IMG/VR virus record: IMGVR_UViG_3300009183_000002
Span: 18,434 to 82,433 of that record
DNA: 64,000 nt
Strand: one strand, 5' to 3'
Source: a virus
In this document: positions 32,338 through 47,543 of the stretch, piece after piece
How positions within the stretch are numbered: the stretch's first letter is position 1
Layout of the letters: every line of letters begins with the position of its first letter
The notes under the pieces: model-generated
The model's input: the letters and a program-made list of their open reading frames with translations, nothing else
What the model was told of the DNA's origin: nothing
The model's database searches: none
Translations under genes and position numbers: made by a program

Positions 32338-35193
32338 TTACCTGAGAGTAGAAAAGGTTCCGCCTGCGACAGAGACTCCTCTTTGTTTCATCATCTTATC
32401 AAGAAAAGACTGAGCTTCCCCTGGTTTACCCGTAAGTTGAAGTTGTCTAAGCTGGCGGGCAACATCAAAAGATTCTTGTTTTTGAGGGGTTGGTGTTTGC
32501 GTAACCATATCTGAAGCACGATAAGCGGGTTTACCAAAATCTTGAGTCATCTGTCGAATCATGTTTTCGGTCCCCGAGCCGCCAGGGAAAGCTACCAGTA
32601 CGTCACCTTCTTTAGCCATTTGCGTGTTTCGTAATGTTCCAGCGGATAACCCCTGTTCATTCCAATTAGCAGGAAATACTTGAAGACCAAGGCCACGTTC
32701 TTGAGCATATCTTTCGGCTAACGTATCCGCGCCACGAGCACCTCCTGACACAATCTTTACACTCATACCTTCTGGAATATTCAGTTGAGAAATAGTCTGA
32801 TCAAGTTTCTGGCTTAACTCAGGATAGTTCTCATACTTACGACCGCCTGCAACAACAACGTTAACTGTTTGCTTGCCTTGCTTACGAGAGCCGGCTGGTA
32901 AACGCCAAGCAGAAGGCGAATTTGATGGGGAAATAGCTGCTTCGGGAGATGTGGATGACGCACCCATAGCTGCACGTTGGACTCCATACATATCTTCAGA
33001 ACTTAAGATATCAGAATAAGATTCTCCAGAGTTTTCACCACGAATAGATGTACGGCTTGCGGCCTGCATTTTGAGAGGCTCTCCAGTTTCGGGGTCAAAT
33101 GCATTAATGTTTGAAACGGATTTAGCACGACCACCAGAAAGCAAACCACCTGGCACAATTTCTAAATCATTAGGCCCAGGTTGAGCCATCCTGGCACCGC
33201 GTTCAATATTAGAAAGCTCGCCACCCTCGGCTTCAAAAGACATAGTGTCAGGTGCGGTGCGCTTAGGGCGAACAACAGTTCCCTCACCGCTCCAATCAAC
33301 TAAGGTGCTTGGCGTCCATTTAGAAAGTTCTTCAAGTTGCTCGTTGGCTGTATTAGTTGCACCTGCTAAACGGTTGTTAAGAAAATTAAGTTCTGACTCA
33401 TTGTTTTGCATTTGATTGGCAACATTTCTAAGCTGTTGCCCAAGTTCGCGATCTGGTTTTTGATTTAAACTGTACAACAACATATTTTGTTGTTCACCTA
33501 AAGCAGCCTGTTGTTTTGCTAAAGCATTGATACGAGGAGTGACTTCAAGTCGAACACCTCCAAGCCAATTTTTAACTTCGTTTTGTTTATTGATAAAATC
33601 TTGTTCAGAATTAATTGCAGTCTGTTCTGAGATAAATGGCTTACGGAAGGCAAGTTCTGGATCATCTTGCATCACATCTTTAATATTTACATCAAACTCT
33701 GTTCCACTTACCATACGGGTGTTAGGCATTTGCGACAAAGAAGCAGCTTGCAGATAACGAGGATCTTCTAAGCCAACTTCCATTGCTTGTTTTGTTTTTG
33801 TAAACTCACTGCCATACTCGTACGATTTAGGTCCAAGGCGAGATGCTAATTCTTTTTCAACTCTTCCTGTAGTTGCAGCACCACCTTCTTGTTCTAGTTG
33901 CGATGCAATGTTTCCACGTTGCTTAGCAATAAAATCCTTAACAAAACCTGTGGTGCTAACTGGTTGACTTGTCATCTCAACACTTTGTCCAGGACCAAGG
34001 CCAGTCCGTGTTTGTCGAGGTGTATTTAAAGAAAACCGTTGGCCAGTGCGTAGGTCAATACCTTCAGCTTGATCAAGCGGGCGGCCATCAGGCATCATGT
34101 CTGCCACGGCGTTAACCGAAGCATCTTGGCGATTAGCTAATGCTTCCGTAGGTTGAGTCTGTGTACGCAGAGGTGCTTCATACGTATCTTGTAAACGGTC
34201 TACGGTACCAATGTCGATATCTTCATTACGCTGCAGTGCACTCATGGTGCGCCCCGTCATTTGATCTTCGCCCGATTCCAAGGCGTTGATTGCCTGGTCG
34301 ACGTTAAAAGCACGTGTTGTCTGTTGTTGGTTTACGAGCGTTTCATTTTGAATCTCGCTTACCAGGTTCCAGAGGTTCTTGCGTTCTTGTGATTGGATGC
34401 TGGCTGCTTGCCTTGCAATCTCACTCCTGGCGCCTTTGTTGCTGAATGCGCTGACTTCATCAATCAGATCACCAGCGGCTTGTTCTGCTGCACGATTTAG
34501 AACAGTCTGTTCAATGTAGCCACGACCGCCAAGTTGATTTGCTAAAAAGTCCGTGCCACTAGGACGAGTGGGCGGAAGAGCTTTAATTTCAGAAACAACG
34601 TCGTCAACGCCTTCTTGTAATTGACCATAAGGAGAAAATTGCCCTAACAGACCTTGACCACCCGTTGCTGCTGGTGGGTTGCCCAAATCTTCTACAGAAA
34701 CTTTCTGGATTCCTAAAGTTGCACGCGCACGTTCGGGTGAAATGTTACTTAAATCTGTTTGCACAATACCAGGCATTCTTTCTGCCCTGGCAACACGGGC
34801 ATTTTCCTCCATGGTGCCCAAACGTTCCACCATCCCACCAGGAGTTGGCCGTGCAGTAGGCGGTTGGCTAGGCGCTGGGGGACGTTGACTTGGAGGAGGT
34901 GCAGTTTGTTGACGACCAGCTGCGCGACGCACAGTTTCTTCAGCTTTACGTGCAGTGCTACCCAAATCTTCTACTGAAACATTTTGAGTTGCGGTACGAG
35001 CTGCACGATTTGCTAATAAACGCTTAGCACCTAAGCCAGCAGCTACACCAGCACCAGCAACTAACGCCGCTTTACCTAACGCATCAATAAATCCACCGCC
35101 TTGGTCTCCACCTTCTTTCTGTCTGTCGGCTTCATACGCAGCTTGCGCCAAGAGAGCAGCTTGTAAATTAGGATCGCTGTAATATGAAGCCAT
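32338..35193 (-). CDS. 951-aa putative ejected protein with C-terminal SLOG (YspA/DUF2493-like) domain
   Basis: N-terminal G/A hydrophobic helix; VVVAGGR, VSGGARGADTLAERYA, FPANW, AG..RN..M, VAFPGGSGTENMI at about 32520-32865. Confidence 0.8.
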   Translation of the reverse strand: MASYYSDPNLQAALLAQAAYEADRQKEGGDQGGGFIDALGKAALVAGAGVAAGLGAKRLLANRAARTATQNVSVEDLGSTARKAEETVRRAAGRQQTAPPPSQRPPAPSQPPTARPTPGGMVERLGTMEENARVARAERMPGIVQTDLSNISPERARATLGIQKVSVEDLGNPPAATGGQGLLGQFSPYGQLQEGVDDVVSEIKALPPTRPSGTDFLANQLGGRGYIEQTVLNRAAEQAAGDLIDEVSAFSNKGARSEIARQAASIQSQERKNLWNLVSEIQNETLVNQQQTTRAFNVDQAINALESGEDQMTGRTMSALQRNEDIDIGTVDRLQDTYEAPLRTQTQPTEALANRQDASVNAVADMMPDGRPLDQAEGIDLRTGQRFSLNTPRQTRTGLGPGQSVEMTSQPVSTTGFVKDFIAKQRGNIASQLEQEGGAATTGRVEKELASRLGPKSYEYGSEFTKTKQAMEVGLEDPRYLQAASLSQMPNTRMVSGTEFDVNIKDVMQDDPELAFRKPFISEQTAINSEQDFINKQNEVKNWLGGVRLEVTPRINALAKQQAALGEQQNMLLYSLNQKPDRELGQQLRNVANQMQNNESELNFLNNRLAGATNTANEQLEELSKWTPSTLVDWSGEGTVVRPKRTAPDTMSFEAEGGELSNIERGARMAQPGPNDLEIVPGGLLSGGRAKSVSNINAFDPETGEPLKMQAASRTSIRGENSGESYSDILSSEDMYGVQRAAMGASSTSPEAAISPSNSPSAWRLPAGSRKQGKQTVNVVVAGGRKYENYPELSQKLDQTISQLNIPEGMSVKIVSGGARGADTLAERYAQERGLGLQVFPANWNEQGLSAGTLRNTQMAKEGDVLVAFPGGSGTENMIRQMTQDFGKPAYRASDMVTQTPTPQKQESFDVARQLRQLQLTGKPGEAQSFLDKMMKQRGVSVAGGTFSTLR

Positions 35194-35295
35194 AATTCTG
35201 GTCTATAACCGTTTGATTACCTCTCAACATTCTATTGTTGGCAAATCTTAGAAATAGAGGCGTTATATTTAAAGAATAACGCATCAGTACCAGGA

Positions 35296-35508
35296 ATGGA
35301 CGCAGGAACGCGCCAACAAAGGGTAGAAGCCCTAGAAACTATTAAAAACAAAGCCATGGAGATGGCTGGTAAGGGGAAAGATTCGCTGGAAGTACGTGAT
35401 TTTGTAACTTCAGCTAAAAAAGAACTGGCATATGAGCTTCCCGATGAGGATGCTTTTAAAAAAGCCATGAATGCAACGCTCGCATACAAGGCTAAGAAAG
35501 GAGAATAA
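35296..35508 (+). CDS. Hypothetical protein
   Basis: ORF followed by terminator. Confidence 0.65.
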   Translation: MDAGTRQQRVEALETIKNKAMEMAGKGKDSLEVRDFVTSAKKELAYELPDEDAFKKAMNATLAYKAKKGE

Positions 35509-35530
35509 TAAATTTTTTACAATGGTAATC

Positions 35531-35557
35531 GCCGGGGGTATTTACCCCGGCTTTTTT
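35531..35557 (+). terminator. Rho-independent terminator
   Basis: GCCGGGG-loop-CCCCGGC then TTTTTT. Confidence 0.85.
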
Positions 35558-35559
35558 GT

Positions 35560-36090
35560 GTGAATTCTTGGGCTACTTACCGCAATAACGTACAAAAACC
35601 AACTTTTACCCCTAGTTAGGTATTGTAATTTTTAAAAAATAAACCAAATCACCCCCAAAATGAGTCAATGTACTTACTAAAGGGGTCGTATACATCTCAA
35701 ATAGGGTACAGAATTAGCTGACGCTTCTCCCAACCCCTATCCGAGTGCGAATATGGGAGGAAAAAAAAGAACTGCGTGATGGTATCAGAAAGCGTTCTTG
35801 GTTCTGAACCAGAGCATGAGGAGGGAAAGTTGGGAAGTTAACCTCGCTTCGCTCGTAGGAAGAACGAAGACCGCTCACTTCGTTCGCTAAGAGAGTAAGT
35901 AGCACCCCCGAGGGTAACGATACACTAAATCAAGGCTGATACGAATTCGTATCGCGCCTGAAATTGGGGAAGGATCCTTCGCACGACAGGGTTCAGATAG
36001 AACTGTAGTTCGCTTGGCACTGGGGTTTTCCACAGGTTTTCCACAGGTAAGCCCAAGCATTCACATCTAACACTCGCACACATCTCAACA
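35560..36090. other. Non-coding late/early switch region; candidate origin or genome terminus
   Basis: No credible ORF; AT-rich tract, hairpins, 16-bp palindrome, two TTTTCCACA boxes. Confidence 0.5.
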
Positions 36091-36092
36091 CA

Positions 36093-36278
36093 ATGACACG
36101 TTCACTCATCGCTTCATACATGTTTGTATTCGGCGTCATCGCAACTGTTGGCACACAGCTCAGCGTACAGAAACTTGAGGCTGCAACTGCAACTCAATGT
36201 ATCCAGCATGACTGGCCAGTGAAAGCTCACCAGGTTCACATGGCTTGGTGTGCAGCCAACAACTATCGAACTAACTGA
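36093..36278 (+). CDS. Small early protein with N-terminal TM/signal
   Basis: ORF; C..HDWP...H...M.WC motif. Confidence 0.65.
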   Translation: MTRSLIASYMFVFGVIATVGTQLSVQKLEAATATQCIQHDWPVKAHQVHMAWCAANNYRTN

Positions 36279-36345
36279 GTACCAGGCGTGAGCCGAGGGA
36301 TCGAATCCCTCACTCAGTATTACCCCCAGCGGAGATGGGTACCGC
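36274..36345 (+). ncRNA. tRNA-like element 1 (type A) plus downstream pseudoknot
   Basis: ACTGAGT/ACTCAGT, GGC-GTGA-GCC, GAGGG-ATCGAAT-CCCTC; then TACCC/GGGTA with GCGG/CCGC. Confidence 0.65.
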
Positions 36346-36361
36346 ACACACGAGTAACACC

Positions 36362-36517
36362 GTGGCAATTCGTAAGAACCTTGCTCAACAATTCGCTAAT
36401 GCCGCCAAGGCATTGGAGAAAGATCAGAGCAAGGAGAAGCTTGGCTTAGCAATCATGGCTGCTCGCATTGGTCTTGCCAATGCAATCATGCCGAAGATTC
36501 CTCCAGTCAAGCGCTGA
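36362..36517 (+). CDS. Small early protein
   Basis: GTG start after element 1. Confidence 0.6.
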   Translation: MAIRKNLAQQFANAAKALEKDQSKEKLGLAIMAARIGLANAIMPKIPPVKR

Positions 36518-36585
36518 TTCGTACAAGCGAGTTGGGAGGTGCAAACCCTCCCACAGCTATTGCCTCCCGCAGAGATAGGCACTGC
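36513..36585 (+). ncRNA. tRNA-like element 2 (type B) plus downstream pseudoknot
   Basis: GCTG/CAGC, ATTCGT/GCGAGT, TGGGAGG-TGCAAAC-CCTCCCA; then TGCCT/AGGCA with GCAG/CTGC. Confidence 0.65.
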
Positions 36586-36601
36586 ACAACAGGAGATTCC
36601 T

Positions 36602-36826
36602 GTGGACCAAGTCTACGTTCTTATGGGTTCTGTAATCTGTGATTACGACCAAGGAGACACTTGGGTACAAGGCGTTTATGCAGATGAAGAATCTGCTTAT
36701 CGCTACAGGGCTATTCTTGAAACAGAACAGCTCCAAAGAGGGATTGACTTAATTAAGTCAGATCCCAAAGCGAGCATCACCATTGATCGTCAATGGTCTG
36801 TTCGTCCTCATAAGCTAATCCGTTAA
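36602..36826 (+). CDS. Small early protein
   Basis: AGGAG SD plus GTG; VYVL...VQGVY..EE.A motif. Confidence 0.65.
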   Translation: MDQVYVLMGSVICDYDQGDTWVQGVYADEESAYRYRAILETEQLQRGIDLIKSDPKASITIDRQWSVRPHKLIR

Positions 36827-36881
36827 AGCGGGTGACCAGGTGCAAACCCTGGTCTAGCAATTGCCACACACTGAGTGTGGC
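36814..36881 (+). ncRNA. tRNA-like element 3 (type B) plus downstream hairpin
   Basis: GCTA/TAGC, ATCCGT/GCGGGT, GACCAGG-TGCAAAC-CCTGGTC; then GCCACAC-ACTGA-GTGTGGC. Confidence 0.65.
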
Positions 36882-36893
36882 TCACTCAAGACC

Positions 36894-37049
36894 ATGACAA
36901 CCACATATCAACAACTCCGTCAGTACTTTACTGAACAAGAGTTGGACAACGCAACAGTTATCACACGTCATGTGCAACACGATTTTCCGCACATGACATA
37001 CGCAGAGATTTACATCAACCTTCTGGTTCAGATGATTGCTGAACGTTGA
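36894..37049 (+). CDS. Small early protein
   Basis: ATG after element 3. Confidence 0.6.
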   Translation: MTTTYQQLRQYFTEQELDNATVITRHVQHDFPHMTYAEIYINLLVQMIAER

Positions 37050-37117
37050 GTACCAGGCGTGAGCCGGGGAATCAAATTCCCCACTCAACTATTGCCTCCC
37101 GCAGAGATAGGCACTGC
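37045..37117 (+). ncRNA. tRNA-like element 4 (type A) plus downstream pseudoknot
   Basis: GTTGAGT/ACTCAAC, GGC-GTGA-GCC, GGGGA-ATCAAAT-TCCCC; same pseudoknot as element 2. Confidence 0.65.
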
Positions 37118-37133
37118 ATACATAGAGTTATCC

Positions 37134-37418
37134 ATGGCTATCAACGGTGATCTTGACCTTAGTAAAGGTTGGATCAAACATGCCAATGTTCCAGGGGGTT
37201 ACTTCCTGGAATATACGGACGACGTTGTGTATCTCACTATCGTCACAGGCCCTCCAGGTTCTGGACTGATGGGCATTATTGCCCCAGGAGTAGAGACTAC
37301 ATACGAGGCCTGGCTTCCTGGTTTAGCCAACCCAACAGGTCATCTAACTCTCCAGGAGATACGTGGCGTCATTCGTTACCTTCATGAGAAGGCAATAGAA
37401 GATGCTATGTATGACTGA
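37134..37418 (+). CDS. Small early protein
   Basis: ATG after element 4. Confidence 0.65.
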   Translation: MAINGDLDLSKGWIKHANVPGGYFLEYTDDVVYLTIVTGPPGSGLMGIIAPGVETTYEAWLPGLANPTGHLTLQEIRGVIRYLHEKAIEDAMYD

Positions 37419-37494
37419 GCTGTAGTACTGCACTACAAGGTGTAGGGCTAGGTGCAACTCCTAGCCTCAGTAATTGCCACACACTGAGTGTGGC
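37414..37494 (+). ncRNA. tRNA-like element 5 (type B) plus downstream hairpin
   Basis: ACTGA/TCAGT, GGCTAGG-TGCAACT-CCTAGCC; same hairpin as element 3. Confidence 0.6.
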
Positions 37495-37506
37495 TTAACT
37501 TAACTC

Positions 37507-37707
37507 ATGTCACTTATCAAGAACGCATACGTATGTGTTGTGAATGGTGAACCAGAACTGTTCCAGACGCAACAACAAGCAGAAGATCATGCCATGGAAC
37601 TTAGCTTCGCATGGTATGACGCACAGCTTGATGTTCCGGCTCCACGACTGGCAGTCATGTCAGTTACCAACTGGTTACAGCTTCAATCACAACTAGTTCT
37701 TGTCTAA
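37507..37707 (+). CDS. Small early protein
   Basis: ORF. Confidence 0.6.
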   Translation: MSLIKNAYVCVVNGEPELFQTQQQAEDHAMELSFAWYDAQLDVPAPRLAVMSVTNWLQLQSQLVLV

Positions 37708-37732
37708 CATTTATTAATTTCAATTCAAACCA

Positions 37733-37957
37733 ATGCAAATCTATCAACCCTGCATCGATTCACATGACAGAGTTATCTGGAATGGCGGTGATTCTACTCA
37801 ACTCCATTTCCAATTTGACGATGGTCACTTTGGTGAAACAGAATGGATCGATGAGTACACACGTACTTTTATGGAATTCCCTACCAGCATGAGTGCCCTT
37901 CACGCAGCAATGGTTGACTTGTACAACTATTGTTCTGCTGGTCTACATAACTTCTAA
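37733..37957 (+). CDS. Small acidic early protein
   Basis: ORF. Confidence 0.6.
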   Translation: MQIYQPCIDSHDRVIWNGGDSTQLHFQFDDGHFGETEWIDEYTRTFMEFPTSMSALHAAMVDLYNYCSAGLHNF

Positions 37958-37970
37958 TTTGATTCAAATT

Positions 37971-38019
37971 TGATGTTTGCCCAGAGGGTTTCGGCCCTTT
38001 CTGCAGACTTCATGTCTGC
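37971..38019 (+). repeat. Long-stem (RNase III-like) refolding element, copy 1
   Basis: TGATGTTTGC...GCAGACTTCA stem with UUCG-capped inner hairpin; alternative GCAGAC/GTCTGC hairpin. Confidence 0.6.
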
Positions 38020-38044
38020 TATCAACTCAACCTAGTTCAATACC

Positions 38045-38302
38045 ATGAACGTTGCACAAGTTGAACATCTTCTAATCCACGATGCCCGGCTATTGGCTCG
38101 TCGAGACTCCAATGCCCATCTACCTTGTATCGATTGGAACATCGAAGAGAAGCGTCAAGCTGCTCTCGAATTGTTCTATGAGTTCCAAGATGGCATGGCT
38201 AAGTTCGAAGACCTGCTGCCAATCTGTGCCATACTTCAGAAGAAGGTTGACATCAACCGACTAGCACTGAAGTGGGAACAGGAGTACGGCATCGAAGACT
38301 AA
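38045..38302 (+). CDS. Small early protein
   Basis: ORF flanked by repeat elements. Confidence 0.65.
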   Translation: MNVAQVEHLLIHDARLLARRDSNAHLPCIDWNIEEKRQAALELFYEFQDGMAKFEDLLPICAILQKKVDINRLALKWEQEYGIED

Positions 38303-38303
38303 C

Positions 38304-38353
38304 TGATGTTTGCCCAGAGGACTCCGGTCCTCTCTGCAGACTTCATTGTCTGC
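38304..38353 (+). repeat. Long-stem refolding element, copy 2
   Basis: Same outer stem; covarying inner AGAGGAC-TCCG-GTCCTCT. Confidence 0.6.
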
Positions 38354-38390
38354 CGTAGATACATATGTACTACGCCACTAACTCAACTCA

Positions 38391-38753
38391 GTGTTAACCA
38401 TGCTTAAAGTCAACGGCACCGGTAAGATTATCCACACTCGTCTCGCCACCTTTGACGACAAAGAGTGGCTGGAAGTTACTATCGCCTACGAAGATGCCAA
38501 GCAAAACAAGCTGCGGGTGGTAGTCACCAATAGCAATGGCTTGCTCTCTGCTGTAAAAGCAGGTGAAGACCTAGTCAATACCTGGGTCGTCTTCCATGGC
38601 GACTTAGCTATCAACCGCGTCCGCTCCCACTACACAGAAGACGGTGTTCATAAAACACTCAAGTGTCCAGAAATCCGTCTTAACTACGCTTATTTAGAGC
38701 GTATGCCAATGAGCAAAACTGTAACATCAGTTGAACAAACTGCAGTTGCTTGA
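38391..38753 (+). CDS. Possible OB-fold/SSB-like protein
   Basis: Beta-strand pattern resembling SSB (G.I...VTIA...VVFHGDL). Confidence 0.5.
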   Translation: MLTMLKVNGTGKIIHTRLATFDDKEWLEVTIAYEDAKQNKLRVVVTNSNGLLSAVKAGEDLVNTWVVFHGDLAINRVRSHYTEDGVHKTLKCPEIRLNYAYLERMPMSKTVTSVEQTAVA

Positions 38754-38834
38754 CGCCTACACTTAACCCTTCCCTATGATACGGCATCGTATCGCTCGGT
38801 AGGTTTTCTGTAGGCCTCACACCTGAGGTCTACA
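38751..38834 (+). repeat. Long-stem refolding element, divergent copy 3
   Basis: TGACGCCTACA...TGTAGGCCTCA then alternative partner TGAGGTCTACA. Confidence 0.55.
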
Positions 38835-38856
38835 TCAACACTACTAACCTGCCTAC

Positions 38857-39069
38857 GTGAAACACATTATCAAACTAGACAAAGGCAAGTACATCCAACT
38901 TGATTCTTATGGTGAGCAAACTACTCATCCATTAGAACCATTCATCGTTGGATTCTTTGTCACTGCTATCGCCGCAATCACTGTTGGTGCAGTACTTGGT
39001 ACTGATGTAACCAAGCTTATCCAAATGCCCAACCACTCAACTCAACCAACTCAACCCCTCAAGCCATGA
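38857..39069 (+). CDS. Small membrane protein
   Basis: One TM helix. Confidence 0.6.
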   Translation: MKHIIKLDKGKYIQLDSYGEQTTHPLEPFIVGFFVTAIAAITVGAVLGTDVTKLIQMPNHSTQPTQPLKP

Positions 39070-39263
39070 CTAACCTTTCCCCCGCCGCGCAGGCTGTGTT
39101 GGATGCCTTCAGTGAACGCTACGAGCTTTGCGGCCCGTTCGATGGCAACTGGCAGGAGCTGTGCCTCGCCGCCGCCCTTCGCGCTGCTGCGCCAATGATG
39201 GAGTGTGTGCAAGATCACCTAAAACTCCTCGCCATCGCCGCCGAACTGGAGGCACAGCCGTGA
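39066..39263 (+). CDS. LSPAAQAVLDA-family small protein, paralog 1
   Basis: Paralogous to next ORF; GC-rich. Confidence 0.7.
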   Translation: MTNLSPAAQAVLDAFSERYELCGPFDGNWQELCLAAALRAAAPMMECVQDHLKLLAIAAELEAQP

Positions 39264-39505
39264 CTGACCAATTTCCTGACGCCACGAAAATGGTCCTTTC
39301 CCCCGCCGCGCAGGCTGTGTTGGATGCCGCAATGACCACTCCCATAGTTCTTGGTTGCTACACAGCAACTCGCAGTCATCAAATTGCCGCCGCCCTTCGC
39401 GCTGTTGCAGATCAGGTTGAGCCTGAGGGTGGCACACCTGCTGAGGTGCAGCAAGTGCTTGACAAACTTCTTACTATTGCCGCCGAACTAGAGGCACAAC
39501 CATGA
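39260..39505 (+). CDS. LSPAAQAVLDA-family small protein, paralog 2
   Basis: GTGA coupling; shares LSPAAQAVLDA, AAALRA, IAAELEAQP. Confidence 0.7.
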   Translation: MTDQFPDATKMVLSPAAQAVLDAAMTTPIVLGCYTATRSHQIAAALRAVADQVEPEGGTPAEVQQVLDKLLTIAAELEAQP

Positions 39506-47203: not shown

Positions 47204-47470
47204 ATGACTGAACCATTCACCAAGCACACAGATCAAGATCATGAGCACCGTAACATAACATTGGAAGAAGAACAGCTGCTAGCAATGGCACTGGCAAATC
47301 TTGGTGAGTACATACATGACAACTCACCTCACTACGTATTGATAGAAGATCCTCGCAATGAGGATGACTACGATACATGGGCATATGGCTGTGAGCCATT
47401 GCCACAAGATCACACTTGGCATTCAACGTCAATAGACGTAGATGTGAGTCCAAGTACGGGAGCGTGCTGA
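47204..47470 (+). CDS. Hypothetical acidic protein
   Basis: ORF; start moved to ATG 47204. Confidence 0.6.
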   Translation: MTEPFTKHTDQDHEHRNITLEEEQLLAMALANLGEYIHDNSPHYVLIEDPRNEDDYDTWAYGCEPLPQDHTWHSTSIDVDVSPSTGAC

Positions 47471-47543
47471 AATTAGTAAACAGAACGCACTTAAAATGCG
47501 TCGGTCTTTGACCTTGCAGGTGCAAGTCCTGTCGCTCCTACCA
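47458..47543 (+). tRNA. trnL: tRNA-Leu(UAA), CCA encoded
   Basis: GGGAGCG/CGCTCCT acceptor, ACGCA-CTTAAAA-TGCGT anticodon arm, long variable arm GGTC-TTT-GACC, GCAGG-TGCAAGT-CCTGT, ACCA. Confidence 0.85.

Follow-up and report, generated by a model that had tools for sequence, protein, structure and literature searches.

We analysed a window of 64,000 nucleotides (nt) of viral DNA, bases 18434–82433 of an 82,433-base-pair (bp) IMG/VR virus record (IMGVR_UViG_3300009183_000002) with direct terminal repeats, and focused on five short elements between its first early genes that an original prediction, made from the sequence, had put forward as anticodon-less mimics of transfer RNA (tRNA). Synechococcus phage S-EIV1, which originates from a high-arctic lake and has Synechococcus sp. 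PCCC-A2c as its host, is the one named relative that the phage collection contains; the genome is that of an S-EIV1-like freshwater cyanophage. Minus-strand structural genes extend to window position 35193, and from 36093 onward small plus-strand open reading frames (ORFs) lead up to a replication module that includes genes for a PcfJ-like protein, DNA polymerase A and single-stranded DNA-binding protein (SSB). We call these small ORFs early genes, a label that we infer from the gene layout; nine small proteins encoded around the array of elements gave no PHROGs match and no useful Pfam match.

By sequence reading and by folding, all five elements lie where the original prediction had placed them, fold as it had described and are confirmed as three-way junctions, with folding energies at z = -1.6 to -4.0 relative to shuffled sequences. 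They are of two types. In type A, a closing stem of 7 bp leads through an ACCA linker to a 3-bp hairpin with a GUGA cap and then to a 5-bp stem with a 7-nt loop (AUCGAAU or AUCAAAU), and this last, T-arm-like stem runs without a spacer directly back into the closing stem. Sequence and folds agree on the acceptor-like stem, the linker, the GNRA-capped mini-hairpin and the 5-bp stem with its 7-nt loop; for the T-arm-like hairpin, ViennaRNA favours 7 bp and a triloop. The first type A junction (36274–36318, plus strand) is closed by pairing of 36274–36280 with 36312–36318 and carries, after the ACCA linker, the hairpin GGC-GUGA-GCC and the T-arm-like hairpin GAGGG-AUCGAAU-CCCUC; the stop TGA (36276–36278) of ORF 36093–36278 lies inside it. 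The second (37045–37089, plus strand) has the closing stem GUUGAGU/ACUCAAC, the T-arm-like hairpin GGGGA-AUCAAAU-UCCCC and the stop TGA (37047–37049) of ORF 36894–37049. The 18-nt core of type A occurs twice, against an expectation of 0.01.

In type B, the closing stem has 4–5 bp, hairpin 1 has 6 bp and a further stem of 7 bp carries the loop UGCAAAC or UGCAACU; the folds reproduce the stacked stems of 4–5 and 7 bp and the loops already described, and the junction contains no unpaired nucleotide. The first copy (36513–36557, plus strand) has the closing stem GCUG/CAGC, hairpin 1 AUUCGU-ACAA-GCGAGU and the stem UGGGAGG/CCUCCCA with loop UGCAAAC, includes the stop TGA (36515–36517) of ORF 36362–36517 and scores 72.1 bits with a type B covariance model. 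The second (36814–36858, plus strand; 77.8 bits) combines GCUA/UAGC, AUCCGU-UAAA-GCGGGU and GACCAGG/CCUGGUC with loop UGCAAAC, and here ORF 36602–36826 ends at a TAA (36824–36826) within the hairpin-1 loop. The third (37414–37471, plus strand) is divergent, with a longer hairpin 1 with an ACAA loop, the stem GGCUAGG/CCUAGCC with loop UGCAACU and the stop TGA (37416–37418) of ORF 37134–37418; the covariance model finds it at 29.4 bits (E = 5e-6), in an alternative register in that alignment. The fold proposed for this copy stands, and its closing stem was corrected to ACUGA/UCAGU (37414–37418 with 37467–37471). Run on all 82 kb with filters off, the model matched only at these three known sites. 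As had been claimed, the stop codon of every upstream gene, four TGA and one TAA, lies inside the element that follows it.

Behind each of the five elements come (N)ATT and then a second structure, again in line with the original prediction, and a Shine-Dalgarno sequence with its start codon (often GUG) lies within ~10–25 nt of that structure. The second structure is either a plain hairpin, of which there are several families, or a 27-nt element of two overlapping helices, S1 and S2. The overlapping-helix element follows the first type A junction (36319–36345, plus strand; AUU linker 36319–36321, S1 36322–36325 with 36337–36340, S2 36329–36332 with 36342–36345, AGAU between the helices, next gene at GTG 36362). 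It recurs behind a UAUU linker at 36558–36585 (plus strand; S1 GCCU/AGGC, S2 GCAG/CUGC, then AGGAG and GTG 36602) and at 37090–37117 (plus strand; the same GCCU/AGGC and GCAG/CUGC, next gene at ATG 37134). The remaining two junctions are followed by an AAUU linker and the 7-bp hairpin GCCACAC-ACUGA-GUGUGGC, at 36859–36881 and 37472–37494 (both plus strand), with the next genes at ATG 36894 and ATG 37507. A UUG within AUUGCC (window 36560, 36861, 37092 and 37474) precedes the annotated start by 33 or 42 nt and is always in its frame, and that frame is open up to the start in three of four cases; ORF callers may start there, and the in-frame UUG probably just reflects the fixed lengths of the leaders.

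A scan of IMG/VR with the sequence of type B hairpin 1 returned more than 80 contigs bearing the entire element, and S-EIV1 has two type B copies. Family members were gathered by sequence patterns and many of the contigs are related, and the counts that follow are of alignment cells and not of independent events. In an alignment of 92 distinct type B copies, 98.2% of cells were paired and 11 of the 18 pairs had changed on both sides; none of 500 shuffles was as good, and slid registers also scored far below. The 7-bp stem exists in many sequence versions with its top two pairs and its loop fixed. Hairpin 1 is near-invariant, with one compensatory change, C-G to U-A, which is present in the window. 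Type A is rarer: 12 distinct sequences of the element were found, and seven of these could be aligned without an 11-nt insertion; in the seven copies 99% of cells were paired, five pairs in the two long stems showed double changes, and again no shuffle of 500 did as well. The compensatory changes that had been claimed for type A were thus borne out by covariation, and type B covaries as well. This argument rests on columns left unconstrained by the search, namely both covarying stems and the linker, and it indicates that the structures are real and selected.

Two U·G pairs of hairpin 1 never vary, and 32 copies of the type B alignment have G·U at one particular closing pair. All copies of the element lie on the coding strand of the flanking ORFs. 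Because the U·G pairs would be A·C mismatches on the opposite strand, the fold is judged to be strand-specific and hence that of a sense-strand RNA. Five complete relatives have two to four copies each, within ~1.2 kb and on one strand; the elements are confined to one stretch of ~1.2 kb per genome. An origin of the motif on a host chromosome was considered and rejected, since a scan of genome contigs gave six matches, none of them on a cyanobacterial chromosome. One of the six (L242) is a misbinned S-EIV1-like fragment, two (L241 and L243) carry a related junction and the other three are without the junction fold. The related junctions (L243:1972–1995 and L241:3170–3193, both minus strand) sit on short contigs of metagenome-assembled genomes labelled Proteobacteria and Nitrospirae, and their hairpin 1 ends in the hexaloop AACCAA and their 7-bp stem in the loop UGCAAAC; the junction of L243 is followed by a small hairpin, a Shine-Dalgarno sequence and an ATG. 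The junction family may reach beyond S-EIV1-like phages.

Among 105 distinct contexts, the longest upstream frame ended within the type B element in 101, at the UGA of the CUGA junction (91 contexts), at a UAA in the same place (4) or at a UAA in the hairpin-1 loop (6), so that the stop was fixed in 95 of 105 where chance would give one-third per frame. The type A copies, including the insertion variant, likewise have the upstream stop inside the element, and a few copies sit downstream of a stop codon, for example after S-EIV1 gene 1. Read-through of the stop to give fusion proteins was rejected: the frame stays open for at least 60 codons after the UGA in 36% of cases versus 25% for the next frame, with no enrichment over one-third.

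A stop placed so far from the chance expectation speaks for one alternative explanation, in which translation termination would be coupled to the element and the element would work as a sensor or operator. A terminating ribosome would melt the closing stem and hairpin 1, so that the fold would form only on untranslated message, where it would bind a host or phage protein or trigger a 5' cut by ribonuclease (RNase) P, leading to non-stop early messenger RNAs (mRNAs) and gene shut-off. Hairpin 1 and the loop of the 7-bp stem are nearly invariant, as would be expected of a binding site, the elements are confined to the first early genes, and plant mitochondrial t-elements make stop-less 3' ends that lie inside reading frames (PMC1920247). 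However, the partner protein is hypothetical and the flanking proteins are ORFans, the copies downstream of a stop codon do not conform, and non-stop mRNAs would waste early gene expression. We regard this explanation as quite unlikely.

Behind the closing stem, the A-U-U linker has a middle U (U52) that is invariant in 92 of 92 type B copies, and the stem after it opens with RCC, conserved at 90% or above; the search pattern had left the linker and the RCC columns unconstrained. Among 83 distinct copies of the overlapping-helix element, S1 (5 bp) and S2 (4 bp) are both 100% paired, five of the nine pairs covary, AGAU is conserved between the helices and the loop after S1 measures 0–1 nt. By the usual geometry of pseudoknots, a loop of this size cannot span a helix of 4–5 bp. 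The S1 and S2 hairpins are near-isoenergetic (-4.5 versus -3.8 to -5.3 kcal/mol), and on these models the element could equally be an unusual compact pseudoknot or a two-state switch. Copies of this leader without a junction and without AUU were also seen (L007:503; L075:13108, minus strand; L036:2513), behind a different hairpin (GGGGCUGCG...CGCAG in L007), and may be the leader of the first gene of an operon.

The genes on either side of the modules vary. The 141 junctions border 61 ORF families, and of the 37 upstream families, 14 are found next to two or more different downstream families. S-EIV1 carries an extra ORF, with a type B copy on either side, between its orthologues of genes 1 and 2 of the window (44% and 62% identity), where the window phage has a single type A copy; because both types occupy the same orthologous junction in the two phages, types A and B are interchangeable at this junction and hence in function. 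Junction types and second-structure types combine freely, and a few stem alleles recur on many contigs. In a test for a joint at the AUU linker, the association of the second structure with the downstream gene and that of the junction with the upstream gene were equally strong. The modules mark joints where cassettes of early ORFans are exchanged, a pattern that is compatible with all RNA-level readings.

This mosaicism could also mean that the modules are chiefly joints at the DNA level, where homologous recombination swaps, inserts or deletes early ORFans and the RNA fold is secondary. The changing partners of the upstream families, the bracketed ORF of S-EIV1, the free combination of parts and the stem alleles shared across contigs all suit such a role, for which the PeSL cassettes of T4-type phages are a precedent (PMC2839356, PMC4122927). 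Recombination, however, needs identity and not compensatory changes, and here the stems covary while the loops are fixed. The U·G pairs make the fold strand-specific, and the fixed position of the stop codon suggests that the modules act in the transcript; the promoter and the U-tract terminator of the kind found in PeSLs are absent from them. A chiefly DNA-level role is thus unlikely in our view, while a role as cassette joint is compatible with, and not exclusive of, a role in transcript processing.

We next consider how far the junctions resemble tRNA. Stacked stems of ~12 bp are present in either type (7+5 in A, 5+7 in B), with no linker on the 3' side. The type B loop has U, G, C, A/G, A, A/U and C/U at its successive positions over a G-C closing pair, and corresponds to the T-loop consensus of tRNA, U-Psi-C-R-A-N-Y, at six of seven positions, position 55 being G; its variation is limited to positions that also vary in tRNA (R57, N59 and Y60). 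When copies were selected on hairpin 1 and the following 7-bp stem only, the loop was U-G-C-R-A-N-Y in 82 of 82 real copies. The type A loop, A-U-C-R-A-A-U, also matches six of the seven consensus positions. The T-arm probe that found the plant t-elements, GGTTCRANYCC (PMC1920247), agrees at 10 of its 11 positions with four of the five elements, the exception being the second type A copy; window-wide, one-mismatch matches to the probe number 11 against 10.8 expected, four of them within 1.2 kb on one strand. In plant mitochondria, t-elements create mRNA ends (PMC1920247), and hairpins of acceptor stem, T-stem and T-loop suffice as substrates of RNase P, which also cuts phage RNAs and mRNAs (PMC11143913).

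The folds of the five elements comprise three helices only, with neither a D arm nor an anticodon arm. ARAGORN called a single tRNA in the window, at 47458, and none of the five elements; the Rfam tRNA model (RF00005) gave no match at E ≤ 10 on 36250–37520; and the elements are followed by AUU-RCC and not by N-CCA, so that an encoded CCA is absent. The proposed tRNA mimicry consequently holds for the anatomy, a closing stem stacked on a T-arm-like hairpin over ~12 bp with a loop that follows the T-loop consensus at six of seven positions, and fails for membership of the tRNA family according to ARAGORN and Rfam. Judged by sequence and predicted fold, the elements mimic half a tRNA, the acceptor/T-arm half, and are not tRNAs. 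In favour of the likeness, the phage's own tRNA-Leu(UAA) (47458–47543, plus strand), which has an encoded CCA, carries G55 in its T loop (UGCAAGU) just as type B does and still reaches 49.7 bits with the Rfam tRNA model; this unusual loop is also found in one relative, and another relative has the usual UUCAAGU.

A likeness of this kind could serve in trans if the junctions were excised as stable tRNA-like RNAs of 45–60 nt and acted as decoys or sponges for tRNA-binding enzymes or tRNA-directed defences. The acceptor/T-arm geometry and the T-loop signature are consistent with this idea, as is the location of the copies at the very start of the early region, presumably a frequent place for anti-defence functions. 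On the other side, the elements are without CCA and without the anticodon arm, the target of most known tRNA-cutting defences, and their tight coupling to stop codons and downstream leaders favours a role in cis. We give such decoys only a slim chance.

Other classes of element were searched for as well. Rfam at E ≤ 10 gave noise only and no match to a ribozyme family, and the sequence lacks the hammerhead core (CUGANGA ... GAAA). In a scan of 35200–39000, no sigma-70-type promoter was found in the five modules and no U tract that would make them canonical terminators, the only such site nearby on the plus strand being at 35531–35551. Small ribozymes are common in phage intergenic DNA, and a three-way junction with conserved junction and loop nucleotides that adjoins a pseudoknot-like element in such DNA might be a new self-cleaving ribozyme; alternatively, it might be an unconventional transcription terminator or attenuator. 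The failure of every Rfam ribozyme model even at E = 10, the missing hammerhead core and a type B junction devoid of unpaired nucleotides argue against a ribozyme, and the lack of a U tract, together with the use of a canonical terminator at 35531–35551, argues against a terminator. Either function is very improbable.

The reading that we tentatively favour, while giving it a little less than an even chance, is that each junction of an early polycistronic transcript carries a bipartite, cis-acting module for mRNA processing and stabilisation. The 5' half, a minimal tRNA-like junction that starts at the upstream stop codon, would provide the upstream cistron with a structured 3' end. The invariant A-U-U linker would be the putative cleavage point, cut either by a tRNA 3'-processing activity after the discriminator-like A or by RNase E in front of AUU; RNase E prefers to cut before A/U-U-U. 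The stem that begins with RCC would then protect the downstream cistron as a 5' cap placed immediately before the ribosome-binding site. The outcome would be single-gene mRNAs with protection at both ends, through selective processing and stabilisation like that at the RNase III sites of phage T7 or the t-elements of plant mitochondria, and the recurrence of the module between unrelated ORFans would allow it to double as a joint for the exchange of gene cassettes. Processing sites with flanking stem-loops are a known mechanism for setting the stability of individual cistrons (PMC4423207, PMC10667835). This reading builds on what is observed at the junctions, namely their folds, conservation and strand specificity, the position of the stop codon, the linker, their confinement to a single region and the mosaicism of the cassettes; that the linker is cleaved, at which position and by which enzyme are steps that we infer.

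Several points weigh against the processing module. The single-stranded linker is only 2–3 nt long, which is short for RNase E. The elements fall below every tRNA model threshold and are without CCA, position 55 of the loop is G and not U, and the branch point of type B lies 5 bp from the base and not 7 bp. Structure families that are not tRNA-like punctuate the remaining early region, and because these lack tRNA likeness, tRNA mimicry may be non-essential to the shared function. A generic stabilising role does not explain why the elements are restricted to the first ~1.2 kb of the early region, and a pure 3' cap does not require a stop codon inside its stem. Since the stop rule is strict and the elements are confined to the first genes, a regulatory role coupled to termination stays in play.

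In a narrower version of the processing model, close to the original prediction, anticodon-less tRNA mimics set in stop codons would recruit host RNase Z, RNase P and possibly the CCA-adding enzyme to produce single-gene mRNAs, with the RNase P cut serving as a timed, non-stop shut-off. By analogy with known systems this is conceivable, and we consider it improbable. A productive 5' cut by RNase P is disfavoured because the stop lies in the closing stem and the upstream mRNA would lose its stop codon; the plant nad6 and ccmC mRNAs do end without one (PMC1920247).

The surroundings of the array contain further features. The final gene of the minus-strand arm (32338–35193, minus strand), which adjoins the divergent region, encodes a low-complexity, Pro/Gln-rich protein of 951 amino acids with a C-terminal YspA/SLOG-type domain (PF10686, 51 bits). 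On the plus strand, a conserved ORF of 70 amino acids (35296–35508) is followed by the site at 35531–35551, a textbook intrinsic terminator of seven G-C pairs and TTTTTTG, and ~540 bp of non-coding sequence separate this terminator from the first early gene at 36093; no promoter was called there by a simple scan. Downstream of the array, an unrelated intergenic family forms long hairpins with an internal loop (37971–38013 and 38304–38346, plus strand; 88% identical, z = -3.3 and -4.1). These hairpins also stand at gene ends, and several structure families punctuate the early region. At 39066–39505 (plus strand), direct repeats of 34 nt (100%), 35 nt (83%) and 23 nt (96%) indicate tandem duplication of a small gene, each copy of which ends in ...AAELEAQP.

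The junctions constitute a real, conserved and apparently undescribed family of RNA motifs, absent from Rfam and partially tRNA-like in sequence and predicted fold. Whatever its mechanism, the motif recurs in an abundant lineage of freshwater phages, on well over 80 viral contigs, and follows a strict stop-at-junction rule; its function can be tested directly in S-EIV1, the one member in culture, and its Synechococcus host. We know of no earlier case of tRNA-like mRNA punctuation in a bacteriophage, and if the modules are processing signals they would, to our knowledge, be the first. They would then also offer compact and portable RNA parts, a 3' cap plus a 5' cap, with which the stability of single cistrons could be set in cyanobacteria.

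Four known systems invite comparison. The early RNase III sites of T7 and other intercistronic stabilisers (PMC4423207, PMC10667835) are similar in placing structures between the cistrons of one operon, so that the upstream message has a hairpin at its 3' end and the downstream message one at its 5' end; the phage elements differ from the RNase III sites in being branched, tRNA-like junctions and not long duplexes, and in having a stop codon built in. The PeSL cassettes of T4-type phages (PMC2839356, PMC4122927) are also conserved intergenic stem-loop motifs that flank variable early ORFans and act as joints for shuffling, but a PeSL combines an early promoter with a terminator-like stem-loop, whereas the modules described here have no sigma-70-type promoter or U tract and their stems covary as in a functional RNA. 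Minimal substrates of RNase P (PMC11143913) share the coaxial stack of ~12 bp and the 7-nt T-like loop; the phage elements lack the 3' RCCA, have an extra side hairpin and would lose the stop codon to a 5' cut. Finally, the t-elements of plant mitochondria and the mascRNA of MALAT1 are likewise non-canonical tRNA-like folds, with an acceptor stem and a T arm, at gene borders within longer transcripts. The T-arm motif is near-intact, in four of the five phage elements at 10 of 11 positions, and cleavage of t-elements can leave an mRNA without a stop (PMC1920247). In contrast, the phage elements have G55, no D or anticodon arm and, in type B, a 5+7 in place of a 7+5 arrangement; they belong to a phage of a cyanobacterial host and are always paired with a second structure that would cap the 5' end of the next message. 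If host tRNA enzymes do cut at these junctions, they would represent the counterpart, in a bacterial virus, of the tRNA punctuation of mitochondria.

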